A DNA stretch of 64,000 nt. Source: Escherichia phage phi G17. A model generated the notes under the pieces. That model saw nothing but the letters and a program-made list of their open reading frames with translations. It had not been told where the DNA came from and did no database searches. The stretch is from sequence record NC_070870.1. The stretch is one strand, 5' to 3'. A program made the position numbers and the translations under genes. Positions 3,058 through 64,000 of this stretch are shown here, piece by piece (the first letter of the stretch is position 1; the number at the start of each line of letters is the position of its first letter).

Positions 3058-5328
3058 ATGGAACACCAAGACACTTTTAAGCCTTTACCAGACCCGGCTC
3101 AATCAGAGAAGCTAACAGACTGGGCGAAGGAACCAAGTATCCAATTACTGAAGGGTGATTTGGAATCTGCTAAACCTGCTCATGATGCCATTATGACACA
3201 GATTCGTGAGTGGAATGACTTGATGGAAATCAAGGGTAAGGCTAAACCCCCAAAGGTTAAGGGACGTTCGCAAGTCCAACCTAGACTGGTTCGTCGTCAG
3301 GCAGAGTGGCGATATGCACCATTATCTGAACCTTTCCTCTCATCTAGTAAACTCTTTAAGTTAACCCCGGTTACTTTTGAAGATGAGTTAGCTGCACGAC
3401 AGAATGAATTAGTTCTTAACTACCAATTCCGTACGCAACTTAATAAAGTAAAACTGGTGGATGATTACGTACACAGTGTCGTAGATGACGGTACTGGAAT
3501 TGCTCGTATTGGTTGGGAACGTAAGACTGTTAAGATTAAAACAGAAACACCAGTCTTCCAGTTGTATCCAATTGAGAACCAGGAACAGGCAGATGTTCTT
3601 CAACAGGCTTTACAACTTCAGGCAGAGAACCCTCGCGAGTATGATGAAACTATGCCAGAAGATATTAAAGAAGCTGTTAACTACTTTAATGAAACTGGAG
3701 AAGCTACCTATGCAATCCAGACAGGGGTTACTGAGGTAGAAGTAGAGAAGGCACTGGTTAACAGACCTACTGTTGAAATGCTTAATCCCAATAACGTAGT
3801 TATTGACCCAAGCTGTAATGGTGATTTGGATAAAGCTCTGTATGCAGTTATCTCGTTTGAGACATGCAAAGCAGACCTCATGAAGAACAAAGACCGTTAT
3901 CACAACTTAGATAAGATTGACTGGGAAAGTTCTAGTCCTATGACTGACCCAGACCATGAAAGTAAAACTCCAAGTGACTTCCAGTTTAAGGATTCACTTC
4001 GTAAGAAAGTGGTTGCCTACGAGTACTGGGGATTCTACGACATCAATGATGATGGTTCGCTGGAACCAATTGTTGCTACCTGGATTGGTTCCACTCTTAT
4101 TCGTATGGAGAAGAACCCTTTCCCTGACGGTAAGTTACCTTTGGTAGTTGTTCCATACATGCCACGTAAACGTGAACTCTTTGGCGAAGCTGATGCTGAA
4201 CTGTTAGGAGATAACCAAGCTATTCTTGGTGCAACTATGCGAGGGATGATTGACCTGTTGGGTCGAAGTGCAAATGGGCAACGTGGTTATCCTAAAGGGA
4301 TGTTGGATACATTGAACCGTCGTCGATATGACGATGGGCAAGACTATGAATACAACCCAATGCAGGGTAATCCTAGTCAGTCCATTATGGAACATAAGTT
4401 CCCTGAGCTACCACAGTCGGCAATAGTAATGACCCAGATGCAAAACCAGGAAGCAGAATCACTAACTGGTGTTAAAGCATTCTCCGGTGGTGTAACTGGT
4501 TCAGCTTATGGAGATGTGGCTGCCGGTATTCGTGGTGCACTTGATGCAGCATCTAAACGTGAGATGGCAATCCTTCGTCGATTGGCTAAAGGTATGGCAG
4601 ACATTGGTACTAAGATTTGTGCAATGAATGCTGTGTTCTTATCCGAGAAGGAAGTAGTACGTATTACTAACGAGCAGTATGTAGAGATTAACCGTGAAGA
4701 CCTTAAAGGTAACTTCGACATCGAGGTTGATATTAACACTGCTGAAATTGATAACCAGAAATCCCAGGACTTGGGCTTCATGGTTCAAACGTTAGGTAAC
4801 ACAGTTGACCAAAGTATTACGTTATCTCTCGTAGCTAAGATTGCAGAACTTAAACGTATGCCTGACCTTGCACATGAGTTACGTACTTGGCAACCACAAC
4901 CAGACCCTATGGAAGAACAACTTAAGCAATTGGCAATTCAGAAAGCACAGCTTGAGAACGAAGAGTTGCAAAGTAAGATTGCACTCAATATGGCTAAGGC
5001 TAAAGAGGCTGCTTCTGCTGGTGACCTTAAGGACCTGGATTATCTGGAACAAGAATCTGGTACTAAACATGCTCGTGATATGGAGAAACAAAAAGCACAA
5101 TCTCAAGGAAACCAGAACCTTCAGATAACTAAGGCATTGACAACACCTACCAAAGAAGGTGAAACTACCCCCAACATATCTGCTGCTGTTGGATATAACA
5201 CTTTGACTAATGGGAACTCTCCGCAAGAACGTGACCTAGCTGCTCAGCAAGACCCAGCTTATTCACTTGGTTCCCAATACTATGACCCTAGTCAAGACCC
5301 ATCATCGGCTCTTGGCATGAACCTGTAA
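3058..5328 (+). CDS. portal protein (N4 gp59-like)
   Basis: 756 aa, size and position (after lysis genes, before scaffold/capsid) match the N4 portal as recalled; acidic C-terminus. Confidence 0.65.
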
Positions 5329-26247: not shown

Positions 26248-26407
26248 TAGTAGCTTTTAATAGATAGCTGTATTTGAGCATTATAGTCTGCTCATACTCA
26301 CACTCTTCTGTCGAAGAATATGTTTACAATATCTAGAGTGCCGGACTGTCTTACCGGCATTGTCTTTAGAGTGCTAAGCAATCAGGACTATGTTCTCTAT
26401 TAATGGG

Positions 26408-26481
26408 TGCCCACTACTGGATTTGAACCAGTGACTTTCCGATTATTAGTCGGTTGCTTTCCCCGTCTAAGCTAAGTGGAC
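26408..26481 (-). tRNA. tRNA-like gene, canonical cloverleaf, apparent anticodon AAU
   Basis: Minus-strand read GTCCACT-TA-GCTT-AGACGGGGA-AAGC-A-ACCGA-CTAATAA-TCGGA-AAGTC-ACTGG-TTCAAAT-CCAGT-AGTGGGC-A: 7-bp acceptor (one G-U), 4-bp D stem with GG in D loop, 7-nt anticodon loop with U33, 5-bp T stem with TTCAAAT loop; anticodon stem has one A-A mismatch. Confidence 0.45.
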
Positions 26482-26613
26482 ATAATAGGGTGAGTCATGC
26501 CAGGCTCTAACTGGCTCCTTCTTCGCAATCCTTACATACCCCTACATAATTATTGCGTTAAGCTTTTTTGTTTAAGTTTAAGTGAAGGTGTTCTTGCTGA
26601 CTCATAATACTTT

Positions 26614-58363: not shown

Positions 58364-58606
58364 TCACTGGTTCCTCTTTGCATAGTCTTCTGCTTCTTTA
58401 GCCCAGAGTTGCTTACGAACTTCTTTGGCTATGATGGAAGCAAACAGACACTTAACGAATACAACTGGTAACTTAACAATGAGGATAGTCTTAGTGACTA
58501 CCCACTTAACTAATTTCAGTGCAATGAATCTCACTCGGTAAGCCACATAGAAGATGAACAACCATGTAGCAACAGAGATTAAATAGCCTAATTCGTATAC
58601 AGACAT
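58364..58606 (-). CDS. small membrane protein
   Basis: 80 aa, hydrophobic N-terminal helices, basic C-terminus. Confidence 0.35.
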   Translation of the reverse strand: MSVYELGYLISVATWLFIFYVAYRVRFIALKLVKWVVTKTILIVKLPVVFVKCLFASIIAKEVRKQLWAKEAEDYAKRNQ

Positions 58607-58710
58607 AGTACATATCCTCTTCTAATATAAATCTATATCTAACTGGTTACTGTTTCAGTACCCTTCGTCTAAAGATACTCAAAAAGTAGAAATAGCTTAT
58701 CGCATAGTTA

Positions 58711-58739
58711 AAAATAAAAGGACTACCCGAAGGTAGTCC
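58711..58739 (-). terminator. rho-independent terminator (minus orientation)
   Basis: GGACTACC-TTCG-GGTAGTCC on minus strand followed by TTTTATTTTT. Confidence 0.7.
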
Positions 58740-58748
58740 AGTTGTTGA

Positions 58749-59132
58749 TTAGAAAGTCAGTTTACGAGCATATTTATTCTCGTCTGCTGGGATGTCAGCA
58801 GCCTCTGCTTTCACACGACGAAGTTGAACTTGCAGGTTAATGATACCTTCTTCACCTGGTTCCAGGTTCTGAGCATATTCGATTAACTGTTCCAGCAAAT
58901 CGTTCTGTGCACAACGCATAGCACGGAAGTCAGCATTGCTGCTGTTAGTAGGCAGTGCTTCCTGAGTATCCAGTGGAATACCAGTAGGCAGAGAGATGAA
59001 CTTCTCTTCTTCAGAGCCTTCGTTAGCAACATAACCAATGTTCAACCAGAACTGAGCCTTAGGCTTAGCAGCTTTAGTTTCAGTGGTAGCAGCAGCGTTA
59101 GATTGACCGAAAGTGAATTTTTGAATAGACAT
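58749..59132 (-). CDS. early protein, unknown function
   Basis: Start set to internal ATG ([11 protein letters not shown]) with SD GGAGAG 8 nt upstream; first ORF downstream of candidate hairpin promoter at 59243-59257. Confidence 0.45.
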
Positions 59133-59242
59133 TTTGTACTCTCCAGATAAATGATTGTTTGATTTATGGGTTTGTCTGTCGGTGACTAAACCCAAGAAAA
59201 GACTTAAGATTTCAATGATTAGTGGATTCACATGAATCCTTT

Positions 59243-59257
59243 AGACGCGGAGCGTCT
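59243..59257 (-). promoter_or_regulatory. candidate virion-RNAP hairpin promoter
   Basis: Plus (template) strand A-GACGC-GGA-GCGTC-T: 5-6 bp stem, 3-nt purine loop; shares GCGGAGC core with hairpin at 60013-60027. Confidence 0.45.
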
Positions 59258-59262
59258 GGTTT

Positions 59263-59556
59263 TTAAGACAAGCGTTTAAGCAACTCTGCTCTAGCAGATT
59301 CGTAGTCAGAACTATTCTGTCTTACTGCATCTTCGAAGCGAGCCAGTAGTTCTTCCTTATCAGGACCAACAAGTTCTTCCCATTGCCATACATAACCAGT
59401 TAATGGAACAAGTTCTCCTTTCTGGAAGTAAGGATATTGTCCAAGTAGAACAGTAGAATCTTTAGTGAGAACTATCGTTTCTCCACTAAGTTCTCCTTCA
59501 ATAATTGTTCCAACAGGAAGTTCAGAATTGCCTTTGATACAACGGAATTTAGTCAT
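59263..59556 (-). CDS. hypothetical early protein
   Basis: 97 aa ORF. Confidence 0.4.
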   Translation of the reverse strand: MTKFRCIKGNSELPVGTIIEGELSGETIVLTKDSTVLLGQYPYFQKGELVPLTGYVWQWEELVGPDKEELLARFEDAVRQNSSDYESARAELLKRLS

Positions 59557-59610
59557 GATTTTCTATCCTTAAAGTAGATAAATATCTACTTAGACTATCT
59601 ATCTAATCTT

Positions 59611-59638
59611 TATAAAAGGAGACTCCGAAGAGCCTCCT
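59611..59638 (-). terminator. rho-independent terminator (minus orientation)
   Basis: AGGAGGCTC-TTCG-GAGTCTCCT on minus strand followed by TTTTATA. Confidence 0.6.
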
Positions 59639-59646
59639 ATATTGAT

Positions 59647-59970
59647 TTAGTCTTTAGTCAGGATGTCGATTACTTTTGAATATTCTGCGTTATAGATACG
59701 AGCGTTCTCAGAATCTTTGCAGAATTCTTCGATACTTTTCTTACGCAGAGTTTCGTTCATAGCTGTTTCTTCAGCTAATTTGTTTACGAATGTATGCATT
59801 TCTAATTTAGTACGGATGGCTTGTTTCTCAGCCATAGTAGATACATATGAGTTAAGCATACCAACTGCTTTAGTAGCTGTGCCGAATGTATCAGCAACAG
59901 TAGTAGCAGCAGAGTTAACAGTACCAAGTAAAGTTCCTGCGGTCATACGTACAGTAGCGGTAGTAGTCAT
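59647..59970 (-). CDS. hypothetical early protein
   Basis: 107 aa ORF; first ORF downstream of candidate hairpin promoter at 60013-60027. Confidence 0.4.
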   Translation of the reverse strand: MTTTATVRMTAGTLLGTVNSAATTVADTFGTATKAVGMLNSYVSTMAEKQAIRTKLEMHTFVNKLAEETAMNETLRKKSIEEFCKDSENARIYNAEYSKVIDILTKD

Positions 59971-60012
59971 GATGATAGCTCCAAGGTTAGATGATAGGAC
60001 GACATGTCCATA

Positions 60013-60027
60013 ACATGCGGAGCATGT
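60013..60027 (-). promoter_or_regulatory. candidate virion-RNAP hairpin promoter
   Basis: Plus (template) strand A-CATGC-GGA-GCATG-T: 5-6 bp stem, GGA loop; same GCGGAGC core as 59243-59257 with covarying outer stem. Confidence 0.45.
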
Positions 60028-60175
60028 GTAACGTGTAAGGTGGGGTAGGGCAGTGGCTACACGGTCAACATACCGGGGGGGATGGTTGAGTGTAAGGGTG
60101 TAGCCCCAGCCACACCACTACAGCTATACATAGCTATCAATATTTTGATATGCAAAAATATCATAGCTATCTCAC

Positions 60176-60463
60176 TTATAAGCAGTTAAATAGGAGGTGA
60201 GGGGTTTGGTAGCTATCTGTATTCACATGCCACGGGGAGGACATGCTTCCCTCCCACGGGAGTACCTTTCCTGGTTCAAGTACCCTTACTATAAGTTTCT
60301 TACCTGCTATCAGTGCCAAGCCTTGTAACTCATGAAGGGTATCTTCATCGGGGACCAGAACCAGTGTGGCTTTAGCTAGCTTTAGATCTTGGAAGTCTAT
60401 CTGTCTTTTTACAGAGTCGGGTCTATACCCTTTAAGAGGAATACGCGTGATAATCATAGTCAT
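60176..60463 (-). CDS. hypothetical early protein
   Basis: 95 aa ORF. Confidence 0.35.
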   Translation of the reverse strand: MTMIITRIPLKGYRPDSVKRQIDFQDLKLAKATLVLVPDEDTLHELQGLALIAGKKLIVRVLEPGKVLPWEGSMSSPWHVNTDSYQTPHLLFNCL

Positions 60464-60822
60464 ACGCCGTAGTCTATCTTAACCAATCTGCCTTTGTAGT
60501 AGCCAAAGTTCTTGGGAAAGGCATCATATTCGTAGAACTCTCTGGATAACTCACAAGAGTGGTATAGGGATTCTAACTCACACCAGAATAACCCCTCATT
60601 GTTAACTTTACTGGCTCTAGCCATGACAACCAGTAGGCCAAATCTATTCGAGTAATGGATTGGACATAGATGCTTGTCTGGGTAATCTTTCCATTGACCC
60701 TCTGTAAGGTTGCTAAGCATACCCTGTACAAAGGTCTTCCATGTCTTGGGGATAGGGAACTTAATAGCATACTTACGTGTTAATAGTACCCATCTGGTTC
60801 CACCTGATTTAATCAGTCTCAT
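60460..60822 (-). CDS. hypothetical early protein
   Basis: 120 aa ORF. Confidence 0.4.
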   Translation of the reverse strand: MRLIKSGGTRWVLLTRKYAIKFPIPKTWKTFVQGMLSNLTEGQWKDYPDKHLCPIHYSNRFGLLVVMARASKVNNEGLFWCELESLYHSCELSREFYEYDAFPKNFGYYKGRLVKIDYGV

Positions 60823-61026
60823 GGTTTTAGTAACCTCAGTATAAGTTTAAACATTACCAGTTCTATAAGATGGTGCTTTGGTGATTATACGGATAGTTCT
60901 GAAGGAGTTACCTTCTCTTACCGTACCGGTCGGAAGTACACGGTAACTTTATTCCGGGACATTAAACCCCAGCGTGGGTTGAATATTTCCTGGGTAGATA
61001 CCCCTCCTTCAAACATCATGAATAGT

Positions 61027-61341
61027 TTAAGGTTCATACTTCAGTACCTGATTAAGAAGACTATCCATGTAATAGCAGTATGCCTCGGAGGATTCGTCAT
61101 TAATAGGAAGACCAATTAAGCCAAAGGTGTATATGCAGAAGTGATTGAGTTCATGAACCAAGGTGATAGGGTCATTATCTTTTGCATAGATGAGTACCGA
61201 ACCATTAGGGAGTAGTGAGGTTATACCTTTGCTTCCATCCTCTGGTTCAATGCCTTTAGCCTTCTTATATTTCTTAGAGAAGGTAGACCAGTCATGTACT
61301 ACTTCTAACTGTACTGGATAGGGGGATGTGTTTAGTTTCAT
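61027..61341 (-). CDS. hypothetical early protein
   Basis: 104 aa ORF. Confidence 0.4.
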   Translation of the reverse strand: MKLNTSPYPVQLEVVHDWSTFSKKYKKAKGIEPEDGSKGITSLLPNGSVLIYAKDNDPITLVHELNHFCIYTFGLIGLPINDESSEAYCYYMDSLLNQVLKYEP

Positions 61342-61661
61342 TAGATACTCTCGTCGCTAGATAAATATGAGGTAGAAGGATAAAGGGTAATCAGTCTACC
61401 GGTAAGGGTAGTAGCTACCATAGGTTCACAAGTAGATAGGATGTATACACCTTTATTCTTAGGTACTTCGACAGGGGTATCTATCTTAATAAAAGTAACT
61501 GGTATACCTAACATTAAGCATGTACCAAGGAATTCATCAGCTTCTTGACTAGGTTCATACAGGACTGTAGTAGTCTTAGCCTTACCGTTGTACCAATCCT
61601 GCTTTGTTATGCTGGATAGATAGCAACTATCACTGTAGTTAGCTAAACAATAGAAGTGCAT
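61341..61661 (-). CDS. hypothetical early protein
   Basis: 106 aa ORF abutting neighbours. Confidence 0.4.
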   Translation of the reverse strand: MHFYCLANYSDSCYLSSITKQDWYNGKAKTTTVLYEPSQEADEFLGTCLMLGIPVTFIKIDTPVEVPKNKGVYILSTCEPMVATTLTGRLITLYPSTSYLSSDESI

Positions 61662-61664
61662 AGC

Positions 61665-61979
61665 TTACTTCCTTACATAGTAGTAACGGTATTCGTCATT
61701 CTCATAACGACTATCCCATTGGTATTCATCAGATACCAGCATGTATGGGATAGGATCATTAGCACTGTGGTTTGTATAGACGGAAGGGGGAACAAGACAT
61801 ACAACCTTACGGTCATTACTTGCCAAGAAGAGTTGACCCCTTACTTCATGGTAATCCTCTAAGGTAGGAACCAGGATTACTTGATGTGGGTTACTGTTCA
61901 TGACCTCTTCTAAAGTGAAGTCAGTTGTGTACATAGACACCCTTTCAGCAAAACTGGGGATGGTCATTATAAATTTCAT
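61665..61979 (-). CDS. hypothetical early protein
   Basis: 104 aa ORF. Confidence 0.4.
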   Translation of the reverse strand: MKFIMTIPSFAERVSMYTTDFTLEEVMNSNPHQVILVPTLEDYHEVRGQLFLASNDRKVVCLVPPSVYTNHSANDPIPYMLVSDEYQWDSRYENDEYRYYYVRK

Positions 61980-62343
61980 GATTGGTTCTCCTTCCTTTAG
62001 GAAGAGGTCTGAAGTAAATGGAAAGTGTTTTATTAAAGACGTTATGGTCAGCTATCAATTCCCAACCGTCTATCTTATAGAAGCGTACACCGGGGAAGAA
62101 CTCATTGAATCCTATATAGCGGGTAAGGTCATACACCTTTGGTTCAGTAAGTATCTCAGTGTTAAGCTGAAGGTTGTATAAGAAAAGAGAACCAATAACC
62201 TCATGGGACTCTTCGCAGTCAGGTAAGAATACTGATTGCCATGGAGCAATGAACTTACTTACTGCTTCTGGTTCCCCAAGGTAATAGGGTTCCTGCTTAT
62301 GAAGTACTCCAGTAATATCAATATCAAAACAGTAGATGCTCAT
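61945..62343 (-). CDS. hypothetical early protein
   Basis: 132 aa ORF. Confidence 0.4.
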   Translation of the reverse strand: MSIYCFDIDITGVLHKQEPYYLGEPEAVSKFIAPWQSVFLPDCEESHEVIGSLFLYNLQLNTEILTEPKVYDLTRYIGFNEFFPGVRFYKIDGWELIADHNVFNKTLSIYFRPLPKGRRTNHEIYNDHPQFC

Positions 62344-62358
62344 AATTGCATACCTCCA

Positions 62359-62395
62359 GAAAAAGAAATGGGGTAGAGCCTCTCGACTCTACCCC
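62359..62395 (-). terminator. rho-independent terminator (minus orientation)
   Basis: GGGGTAGAG / CTCTACCCC 9-bp stem; on minus strand followed by ATTTCTTTTTCT. Confidence 0.6.
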
Positions 62396-62545
62396 TTACC
62401 GTTTTCAATCACGGGTCAGTTCATCCCCCTAGGTACTTATGTACCGTTAGACCAACTGGGTTGGCAAAGGAGCCGGGGAACCCTGACTGTAGAAGTTATT
62501 AACTCTTTACGAGTACCGCCACTGTCTACTAGGCGGTATGACTAA

Positions 62546-62863
62546 TCACATCGTCACCGTCATCCGAACGCTATCGTTGCTTCGTTTGATGGAGACACTA
62601 TGAGGTAATTTTGTGAAGAACACAAGAGATGAAACAGACTTTTCTAAAGAGTAAGTTTCTTGTGGTTCTAAGATGGTAACACCGGGACGATTCTCTAATA
62701 ACATCATTCCAGATAACTCATGGAAAGAATCCCAGTCATGGGTAACAACTATGTCACCCTTCATTAAGCCAGCCTTGGTGTGGCTTACTTCAAAGTATTT
62801 GTCTCCGGAGTCTTGGACTCTCATAAAGATTCTCAAGGGGTACTCCTTGGGGAATAAGGTCAT
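62546..62863 (-). CDS. hypothetical early protein
   Basis: 105 aa ORF, rightmost minus-strand gene. Confidence 0.4.
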   Translation of the reverse strand: MTLFPKEYPLRIFMRVQDSGDKYFEVSHTKAGLMKGDIVVTHDWDSFHELSGMMLLENRPGVTILEPQETYSLEKSVSSLVFFTKLPHSVSIKRSNDSVRMTVTM

Positions 62864-63006
62864 CGGAACATTACATACTATTTAGTATCATGAACTTTTT
62901 CTATATCATGACTAAAGTGTAACTGTGTGGTAGAGTTTCTTCAAGGGGTATCTCACCCCAAGAAAAGAATCTTCGTTAATAGACATAACTTTGTAGAGAG
63001 ATAAGT

Positions 63007-63696
63007 ATGAGTGAACTAACTAAGCAGCAGATTGTTAATGCCTTACCTGCTAACTTCAAGAACAGTGTGAGCCAAGAGTTGGTAGACACGATTAACAACG
63101 TAACCCAGGACCAATTGGTTGCTGAGGCATTTCGTGAAAACTTCATCTCTTACTCTGGTGTCATGAAGGAAGGCAAGTTTAAGACACAGGACTACATGAA
63201 TGCAGTTCAGTATGTAACTTACAAACACATGGGCTACTCGAATAAGGAAGCCTACTTCAAGACATTCCCCAACCGACAAGCAGAACTAGTAGCACGAGGA
63301 ACCAGTGAGAAAGATATTAGTGCTTACGTATCTGCTTATCACAGAGGTAAGTTAGTTAACCTAATCATGGAACAAAGTTTGGTTCCAGTGTGGATTGTGA
63401 ACCAAGACAATTATCAGAAGGCAATCAACGTACAGGTTGAACTAATGAATACGGCTGTTAGTGAGAAGGTTCGTTGCGATGCAGCTAACTCTATCCTTAC
63501 TCACTTAGCTAAACCAAAAGATCAGGTAACGAATATCAATCTGGACTTGAGAGAGAACTCCGGGTTGACTGACCTCAAGGCAACACTTGCTGCATTGGCT
63601 GAACAGCAAATTAGTGCAATCAATAGTGGTGTACCTACTAAAGAGATTGCTGGTTCTAAACTCGTACGTGCAGATGAGGACATTACAGATGTCTGA
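63007..63696 (+). CDS. hypothetical protein preceding terminase (possible small terminase subunit)
   Basis: 229 aa ORF whose stop overlaps the ATG of the next ORF (ATGTCTGA); position only. Confidence 0.3.
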   Translation: MSELTKQQIVNALPANFKNSVSQELVDTINNVTQDQLVAEAFRENFISYSGVMKEGKFKTQDYMNAVQYVTYKHMGYSNKEAYFKTFPNRQAELVARGTSEKDISAYVSAYHRGKLVNLIMEQSLVPVWIVNQDNYQKAINVQVELMNTAVSEKVRCDAANSILTHLAKPKDQVTNINLDLRENSGLTDLKATLAALAEQQISAINSGVPTKEIAGSKLVRADEDITDV

Positions 63697-64000
63697 GTTA
63701 ATTAAACAGGAACTAGATGAATGGCTAGACCAGGTGGATTACTCCCACCTTAATTCTTCTAACTATGTTCCTAGTCAGTTTGCTCTTACCTTTGCCAACT
63801 TCATTAAGTTGGTTAATGGCAAAGAGGGCGAATCAAACAAAACACCTCCAGTTCACCTGAAGATGTTGGATAAGATGATTAGCCCTAACCAGTATGTAGT
63901 TAACCTGTGTTTCCGTGGTGCAGGTAAGACTGCTGTATTCATGGAATACTTTACTCTGTTCCTGGCAGTGTTTGGTCACTTACCTAGTTTGGGTAAAGTA
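63689..64000 (+). CDS. probable terminase large subunit, N-terminal part (ORF runs off window end)
   Basis: Open frame from ATG 63689 to window end; FRGAGKT Walker-A-like motif; location at head of late strand. Confidence 0.4.
   Translation, partial: MSELIKQELDEWLDQVDYSHLNSSNYVPSQFALTFANFIKLVNGKEGESNKTPPVHLKMLDKMISPNQYVVNLCFRGAGKTAVFMEYFTLFLAVFGHLPSLGKV

Follow-up and report, generated by a model that had tools for sequence, protein, structure and literature searches.

The closest described systems to the gene block considered here, positions 60176–62863 on the minus strand of a 64,000-nucleotide (nt) window of Escherichia phage phi G17 (sequence record NC_070870.1), are found in the phages N4 and G7C. 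Phages of the N4 type use three RNA polymerases in sequence. The left end of the N4 genome enters the cell first and the right end last, and the hairpin promoters are confined to the left end (PMC4496689). In G7C, gp70, gp71, gp71.1 and gp71.2 follow one another at the right end, flanked by the late gene gp69 on one side and the right terminal repeat on the other; gp1 and gp2 occupy the left end. The orthologous open reading frames (ORFs) 70–71(–72) of N4 have the same order and orientation from gp69 to the right terminal repeat. To the G7C set phi G17 adds genes for a protein with an HExxH motif, a miniature kinase-like protein and a 95-amino-acid (aa) paralog. A further parallel is provided by LUZ7, in which 29 small unknown genes are placed immediately upstream of its right terminal repeat (Ceyssens 2010, PMC3715699). 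Both clusters occupy the same niche and consist of small genes without database matches whose presence varies between relatives. LUZ7 differs in belonging to another subfamily and in the far larger size of its cluster, and the likeness is drawn from position and gene type. We consider it rather likely that phi G17 is a G7C-like, N4-related Gamaleyavirus whose block is an accessory-gene module at the right terminus and not an early operon.

The region 60176–62863 is 84–88% identical to Gamaleyavirus coliphages. G7C 69048–71686 aligns with window positions 64000–61359, and G7C 71673–72225 aligns with 60197–59647, the latter block spanning the start of the G7C right terminal repeat at 71758. The left end of G7C, TGACAGGGGCTACACCC, corresponds to TGGCTGGGGCTACACCC in the window at about 60112, the last base of the PhAPEC7 record corresponds to window position 60113, and the right repeat of Mimir124 begins at the equivalent of about 60112. 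According to the Mimir124 paper, the left end determined by PhageTerm agrees with the G7C end that was verified by run-off sequencing. By comparison with these records, the window appears to be a repeat-collapsed, circularly joined assembly of a G7C-like phage, and homology to the verified G7C and Mimir124 ends puts its physical left end at about 60112. Such an end, together with the synteny with G7C, would place the whole block at the right end of the genome, as unique DNA just upstream of the right terminal repeat and beyond the divergent late gene gp69.

The first-pass annotation had described the block as the start of the minus-strand transcription unit and its genes as early and first expressed. 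The former impression is due to the circularized assembly. With the block mapping to the right end and N4 entering left end first, the latter description is unsupported, and the orthologs of the block are N4 gp70 and gp71, not N4 early genes. As to the left-end location and hairpin promoter of N4-type early genes, the block instead lies upstream of the right terminal repeat. The annotation correctly placed it upstream of two GC-GGA-GC promoter hairpins, which are found downstream of the block at 60014–60026 and 59241–59259, beyond the inferred genome end.

Seven minus-strand ORFs of at least 95 aa (95–132 aa) fill 60176–62863. Strand and size range are those given in the annotation, which had counted nine. 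It had also noted overlapping starts and stops, and these are present at 61945–61979 (35 nt), 61341 (1 nt) and 60460–60463 (ATGA); the ORFs that meet at 61661/61665 are separated by 3 nt. The description as tightly packed holds for these overlapping or abutting pairs, but non-coding stretches at 62344–62545 (∼200 nt) and 60823–61026 (204 nt) interrupt the block. The sole further minus-strand ORF (39 aa, 60918–61037) is inside the 204 nt gap, in the remnant of a deleted gene, and is probably spurious. A 69 aa plus-strand ORF at 62336–62545 is not conserved and 1 nt indels break its frame.

Six of the seven ORF families, with orthologs in 7–16 related loci, have ratios of non-synonymous to synonymous substitution (dN/dS) of 0.17–0.34 and an excess of third-position substitutions; gp1, taken as a control, has a dN/dS of 0.135. 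For the seventh ORF (120 aa) 44 homologs were found, among which 30 columns are invariant. Thus, for the conservation and coding signal on which the annotation had made the reality of these genes depend, orthologs and purifying selection were found. All seven ORFs are assigned to PHROG families, each of 'unknown function', Shine–Dalgarno sequences precede most of the starts, and the AlphaFold2 models of two ORFs are confident. Judged by these signals, the seven ORFs are genuine conserved small genes.

The first gene of the block is the ortholog of gp70. Its longest ORF extends to 62863, while most gene callers use TTG 62836, which has AAGGAG six nt upstream and gives a 96 aa product (62546–62836); this is probably the correct start. 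The protein shares 36% identity with N4 gp70 across 110 aa (E = 8e-20) and its position beside gp69 is conserved. The gp71 ortholog (61945–62343, 132 aa, dN/dS 0.25) is 74–89% identical among Gamaleyaviruses and clusters with N4 gp71, in agreement with the annotation of G7C. It is followed by the orthologs of gp71.1 (61665–61979, 104 aa, dN/dS 0.17) and gp71.2 (61341–61661, 106 aa, phrog_12099, dN/dS 0.28). The last gene before the terminal repeat encodes a 95 aa protein (60176–60463, phrog_16338).

Profile and structure comparisons show four of these seven proteins, gp70, gp71, gp71.1 and the 95 aa protein, to be paralogs within a small α/β family specific to Schitoviridae. The 95 aa protein cross-matches the gp70 family phrog_7213 in PHROG, and gp71.1 matches phrog_11661 with a weak cross-match to phrog_16338. 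With tblastn the 95 aa ORF matches gp70 genes of other phages and gp71.1 matches gp71. The hhalign values are 92.6% for gp70 against the 95 aa family, 89.7% for gp71.1 against the 95 aa family and 76% for gp71 against gp71.1, with controls (gp1, gp2, the 97 aa family and the HExxH family) at 1% or less. The shared core consists of a hydrophobic strand, the sequence P/H-D-x-[DE]-x-x-H-E-[LV]-x-G and a helix, and in the joint alignment of the paralogs His39 and Gly43 are invariant. In a Foldseek search of predicted viral structures, the gp70 model matches small uncharacterized proteins of many N4-like phages with TM-scores of up to 0.88, including several distinct proteins within one phage, and the 95 aa protein of phi G17 is among the matches. 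gp70 is the founding member of this family, which has the signature H-E-[LV]-x-G. The best hhalign link of gp71.2 to the family (21%) is weak and unproven. In a related Gamaleyavirus (locus L058, 3391–3684) a 97 aa paralog variant, the last gene before the repeat, carries H-H-I-Q-G in place of the signature, and the glutamate is therefore not strictly required.

Between gp70 and gp71 lies a pseudoknotted non-coding RNA element of ∼190 nt (62359–62545, minus strand) with eight helices including the pseudoknot. P1 (62536–32 with 62520–16) is an invariant stem that closes a conserved 11 nt loop, of which UAGA (62528–25) pairs with the downstream single strand UCUA (62493–90) to form the pseudoknot; an additional pair G62529–C62489 would compete with P3a. 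P2 (62514–11 with 62505–02) is variable. The long-range helices P3a (62489–86 with 62420–17) and P3b (62480–75 with 62429–24) enclose the hairpins P4 (62464–52) and P5 (62445–41 with 62436–32). P6 (62414–11 with 62402–399) is followed by P7, an intrinsic terminator at 62359–62395 (GGGGUAGAG / CUCUACCCC + AUUUCUUUUU). The annotation had proposed that a hairpin CCAAC-TGG-GTTGG at 62452–62464 and a terminator at 62359–62395 subdivide the block. Both are at these positions, but the hairpin is P4, one helix of a larger RNA.

The element is 92–98% identical across 55 Gamaleyavirus records, above the level of the flanking genes. It is also found in Moo19, Jgk1 and two metagenomic lineages and more loosely in N4, where the gp70–gp71 interval retains hairpin P1 along with the pseudoknot and terminator. 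In an alignment of 26 distinct sequences, the same ones from which the structure was derived, 95.3% of the cells are paired and 18 of the 46 pairs have changed on both sides, a count that is inflated by relatedness as the sequences represent about six independent lineages. None of 500 shuffles equalled the observed pairing, and slid controls reached at most 46%. Five of the nine pairs of P7 covary, and the minimum free energy z-score of the element is −3.86. G-U cells (49) outnumber A-C cells (17), one U-G pair is conserved in 22 sequences and one pair of P3b runs through C-G, G-U and A-U; the excess of G-U over A-C indicates an RNA of the gene-sense strand. No conserved reading frame is present in the element on either strand. 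With covarying helices and no conserved ORF, 62359–62545 is a structured functional RNA.

This RNA is undescribed. Rfam 15 gave no match at E ≤ 1 over 58500–63300, and for a 231 nt stretch the best Rfam model was Moco with 13.9 bits, against a gathering score of 36. A literature search found no description of a non-coding RNA of this kind in N4-like phages. E. coli genomes contain no sequence similar to it, IMG/VR returned no copies beyond the known contigs and a scan of GTDB genomes returned chance matches in GC-rich genomes only. Metagenomes, when scanned, yielded additional close relatives and a single N4-like copy.

The first-pass annotation reported no recognizable motifs in the block, yet in addition to the paralog signature an HExxH…E motif and kinase-type residues are found. 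The 104 aa protein encoded at 61027–61341 (dN/dS 0.20) is a putative zinc peptidase of the gluzincin type with the motif His63-Glu64-x-x-His67…Glu86…Tyr90, in which Glu86 would be the third ligand as in gluzincins. All five residues are retained without exception by 52 members at 22–47% identity, and the family counts 658 cluster representatives at E ≤ 1e-3. Matches to curated peptidase families are all below threshold (DUF4344, 0.023; SprT-like, 0.056; M4, 0.01; M10, 0.039; Spartan, 0.82). The family resembles minigluzincins, SprT/Spartan-like proteins and DUF4344 in having HExxH with a glutamate 19 residues further on in a domain of ∼100 aa. It differs from them in its own invariant Tyr90 and conserved Cys69/Cys89, with matches that stay below thresholds. 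The best PDB match of the family profile, itself not significant (E = 0.33), is to residues ∼2178–2234 of the N4 virion RNA polymerase ('…TLIHELVHA'), with an alignment of 56 residues that includes the stretch before the motif.

The 120 aa protein (60460–60822) is predicted to be a miniature protein-kinase-like protein. Its model has the five-stranded N-lobe, helix C, the catalytic loop and the DFG-equivalent D-Y-G of the kinase fold; the chain terminates two residues past D-Y-G and lacks a complete C-lobe. Lys21, Glu41, Asp100 and Asn105 are invariant in the family and Asp117 is present in at least 90% of members, with kinase-like spacings of 20, 59, 5 and 12. Their equivalence to the β3 lysine, the helix C glutamate, D-x4-N and the DFG aspartate was judged by order and secondary structure. 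The family profile matched no kinase in the PDB or Pfam, and NCBIfam likewise gave no kinase match. Homologs occur in T1-like and T4-like phages. Phage kinases act as broad anti-defence factors, and known members disarm defence systems by phosphorylation. Like T7 gp0.7 (T7K) and JSS1_004, the protein combines a protein-kinase fold with a presumed place among the non-essential genes of a lytic phage. In the T4-like Serratia phage PhiZZ30 (L056) the homolog at 4001–4381 is located in a variable region beside Acb1 (anti-CBASS) and internal protein I (IPI), a neighbourhood typical of anti-defence genes.

The order gp70–gp71–gp71.1–gp71.2 is conserved among relatives. Distal to gp71.2, the HExxH, 'c6', 95 aa, 'c16' and kinase-like genes occur in combinations and orders that differ between relatives, and genome comparison shows this part to be a shuffled cassette subject to gain and loss even between close relatives. 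G7C lacks ∼1.16 kb of the phi G17 block. The non-coding gap at 60823–61026 (minus strand) is what remains at the 3′ end of a 'c6'-family gene that has been deleted; a 68 nt stretch in it matches the 3′ end of PhAPEC7_80. In the related phage L058 the HExxH gene overlaps the kinase-like gene without a gap. When G7C 71673–71698 is compared with window positions 61359 and 60197, the last residues of G7C gp71.2 (…LLFNCL) correspond to the C-terminus of the 95 aa ORF of the window, and the two G7C alignment blocks overlap by 13 nt; G7C gp71.2 looks like a deletion chimera left by the loss of ∼1.16 kb. Direct repeats of 30 nt at 60269–60298 and 60819–60848, which are 80% identical and 550 nt apart, lie on either side of the kinase-like gene plus the 5′ portion of the 95 aa ORF, and may be a scar of the recombination by which the cassette was acquired.

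A conserved region upstream of gp70 (62916–62959, minus strand) is a candidate promoter for the block. It contains the hairpin GGGGT-GAGAT-ACCCC (62959–62945), TTGAAG (62944–62939), a 17 nt spacer and TACACT (62921–16), and this arrangement is conserved in an alignment of the gp69–gp70 intergenic region of 15 loci, which include N4 (TTGCAG-17-TAGACT) and a distant N4-like locus. The motif does not recur at other places in the window. The terminator P7 was also found by a terminator scan, PhAPEC7 annotates a terminator at this position, and the GGAGG ribosome-binding site of gp71 is located ∼3 nt downstream of the P7 U tract. Two other candidate promoter features were rejected: the upstream motif GTTASACTTTAGTC is no more frequent in the window than expected by chance, and no common layout emerged when hairpins with TTTA after them were scanned for. 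Elsewhere in the gp69–gp70 intergenic region, 62875–62911 contains a perfect palindrome ATACTA-AA-TAGTAT (62875–62888) and two TCATGATA repeats 20 nt apart. Gamaleyaviruses conserve both the palindrome and the repeats, whereas N4 has a shorter version of the region, which resembles an operator or else a portion of the divergent late promoter.

In the arrangement that we propose, the module would comprise gp70, the ∼190 nt RNA with its terminator and then the six genes for gp71, gp71.1, gp71.2, the zinc-motif protein, the mini-kinase and the 95 aa protein. Transcription would begin in the gp69–gp70 intergenic region after entry of the right end, and would for that reason be middle or late and not immediate-early. 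Most transcripts would end at the terminator, to yield a gp70 mRNA with the structured RNA at its 3′ end. As P7 adjoins the ribosome-binding site of gp71 so closely that no promoter fits in between, expression of the six downstream genes would require read-through, which is probably gated by the structured RNA or by the type of polymerase. Such gating in cis is suggested by the architecture. The proteins would be factors for host interaction or counter-defence that the phage can do without, namely small binders, an ATP-dependent enzyme of kinase-like type and a small metallopeptidase. The suggestion in the first-pass annotation that these genes encode undescribed inhibitors is retained to the extent that they are reasonable host-interaction or counter-defence candidates, but not as first-expressed genes. 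More tentatively, the RNA could represent a new class of riboregulator, either an attenuator that senses a ligand or factor or a polymerase-specific antiterminator, that controls whether the terminal accessory and counter-defence genes, the half-size kinase and mini-metallopeptidase among them, are expressed, with the gp70 protein as a possible partner. Attenuating riboswitches, HK022 put and EAR likewise combine a conserved pseudoknotted RNA with an intrinsic terminator and the ribosome-binding site of a multi-gene unit. The phi G17 RNA differs from these in following a coding gene instead of a promoter, in having no Rfam match and in showing no alternative antiterminator helix.

Several points weigh against this reading of the block. 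The ends of phi G17 are inferred from its relatives G7C, PhAPEC7 and Mimir124, and the modest number of lineages behind the covariation applies here as well. Searches of Pfam, NCBIfam, PADLOC and PDB sequences gave no significant match for any of the seven ORFs, which bears on the kinase and peptidase activities in particular: the former is predicted from the model and motifs and the latter from the motif. PADLOC likewise assigned none of the seven to a known defence or anti-defence family. The fold search with the gp70 family returned no informative neighbour, only weak generic matches to RecA-like domain 2. The σ70-like match upstream of gp70 is weak (8/12 to consensus) and a σ70 scan listed nothing there, in line with the annotation, which had identified no promoter for the block. 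Two antiterminator pairings with the 5′ arm of the terminator were considered and show no covariation in the 26-sequence alignment; a pairing of the junction with the terminator arm does not covary there. A literature search on the function or expression of N4 gp70–72 and on the expression of the block in N4-like coliphages found nothing.

The last gene and the inferred start of the terminal repeat are separated by 64 nt. Here, within the junction 60113–60175 next to the inferred genome end at ∼60112, lies an inverted repeat of 18 nt (ATAGCTATCAATATTTTG / CAAAAATATCATAGCTAT, 60130–60147 / 60153–60170). The junction is ∼90% conserved with G7C and the repeat carries GATAGCTAT cores; in G7C, GATAGCTAT recurs ∼40 nt within the boundary of the repeat at its other side (about 1115–1125). 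The inverted repeat may be a terminase recognition or cutting signal. Outside the block, ARAGORN calls one tRNA-Ile gene with the unusual anticodon AAT (26404–26482, minus strand) in the middle-gene region.

Other explanations concern either the block or the RNA. One view, in which the block is junk close to the end of the genome and its ORFs are spurious or in decay, is suggested by gene content that differs greatly among close relatives, by the remnant at 60823–61026 and by the absence of ∼1.16 kb from G7C. It is hardly credible in view of the dN/dS values, the Shine–Dalgarno sequences, the two confident models, the catalytic-type residues that are invariant across hundreds of homologs and the retention of gp70 and gp71 as far as N4, and has already been largely refuted. 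Alternatively, the ORFs could be immediate-early genes for host-takeover inhibitors transcribed from a virion RNA polymerase promoter, perhaps the hairpin at 62452–62464. The ORFs point in the same direction as early and middle genes, they are small, overlapping and uncharacterized, and in G7C the template-strand hairpin has the GGA loop of true early promoters. On the template strand, the N4 promoter has a 5–7 bp stem, a 3 nt loop centred on a purine (−11), and −10G, −8G and +1C (PMC4496689). The phi G17 hairpin, CCAAC-TGG-GTTGG on the template, has the central G in the loop but A at −8. Its loop differs among relatives (TGG, GGA or TAG) and its stem covaries as an RNA helix within a larger fold, and transcripts from it would still meet the terminator 60 nt downstream. 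Together with the location of the block at the end that enters last, this makes an immediate-early role very unlikely.

For the RNA, a role as a stable trans-acting small RNA, produced from the gp70 3′ untranslated region or from its own promoter and acting on host or phage targets or sequestering a protein, is a possibility that we regard with considerable doubt. The strong terminator with a long U tract and the very high conservation across the element would suit such a role, as would the fact that it always follows gp70 but the gene downstream varies, being mostly gp71 but the HExxH gene after a ∼200 nt gap in one locus (L014) and another ORF in a second (L015). Late-expressed small RNAs have also been reported in the N4-like phage LUZ7. 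Against it, E. coli DNA shows no similarity of the kind expected from mimicry or from a target of extended antisense pairing, and in Gamaleyaviruses, Moo19 and N4 the terminator is directly followed by a ribosome-binding site and start codon. A trans-acting role and control in cis are compatible and not mutually exclusive. Action of the element as DNA, whether as an origin of replication, a site for packaging or terminase recognition, or a promoter of the hairpin type, appears improbable to us. The element is 1–2.3 kb from the terminal-repeat boundary and N4 biology employs extruded DNA hairpins, but pair changes pass through gene-sense G-U intermediates, a loop pairs with a single strand in a pseudoknot with compensatory changes, and end signals appear elsewhere, at 60113–60175. 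A literature search for an N4 replication origin found nothing.

If the block is a right-terminal accessory module, repeat-collapsed assemblies of phages with terminal repeats would be a recurring trap for annotation, in that genes of the right end pass for the first early ones, and would mislead screens for early host-takeover factors. The block would resolve into a multi-copy small-protein family found throughout Schitoviridae, a protein-kinase fold cut to 120 residues with its catalytic-type residues intact and a zinc-peptidase-motif family of ∼100 residues with hundreds of members. It would also contain a candidate new covarying pseudoknotted RNA, absent from Rfam, at the exact point at which transcription must either stop or read through into the accessory genes. 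A gate formed by this RNA and its terminator at the last-injected end of the genome would be a new layer in the three-polymerase programme of N4-like phages.

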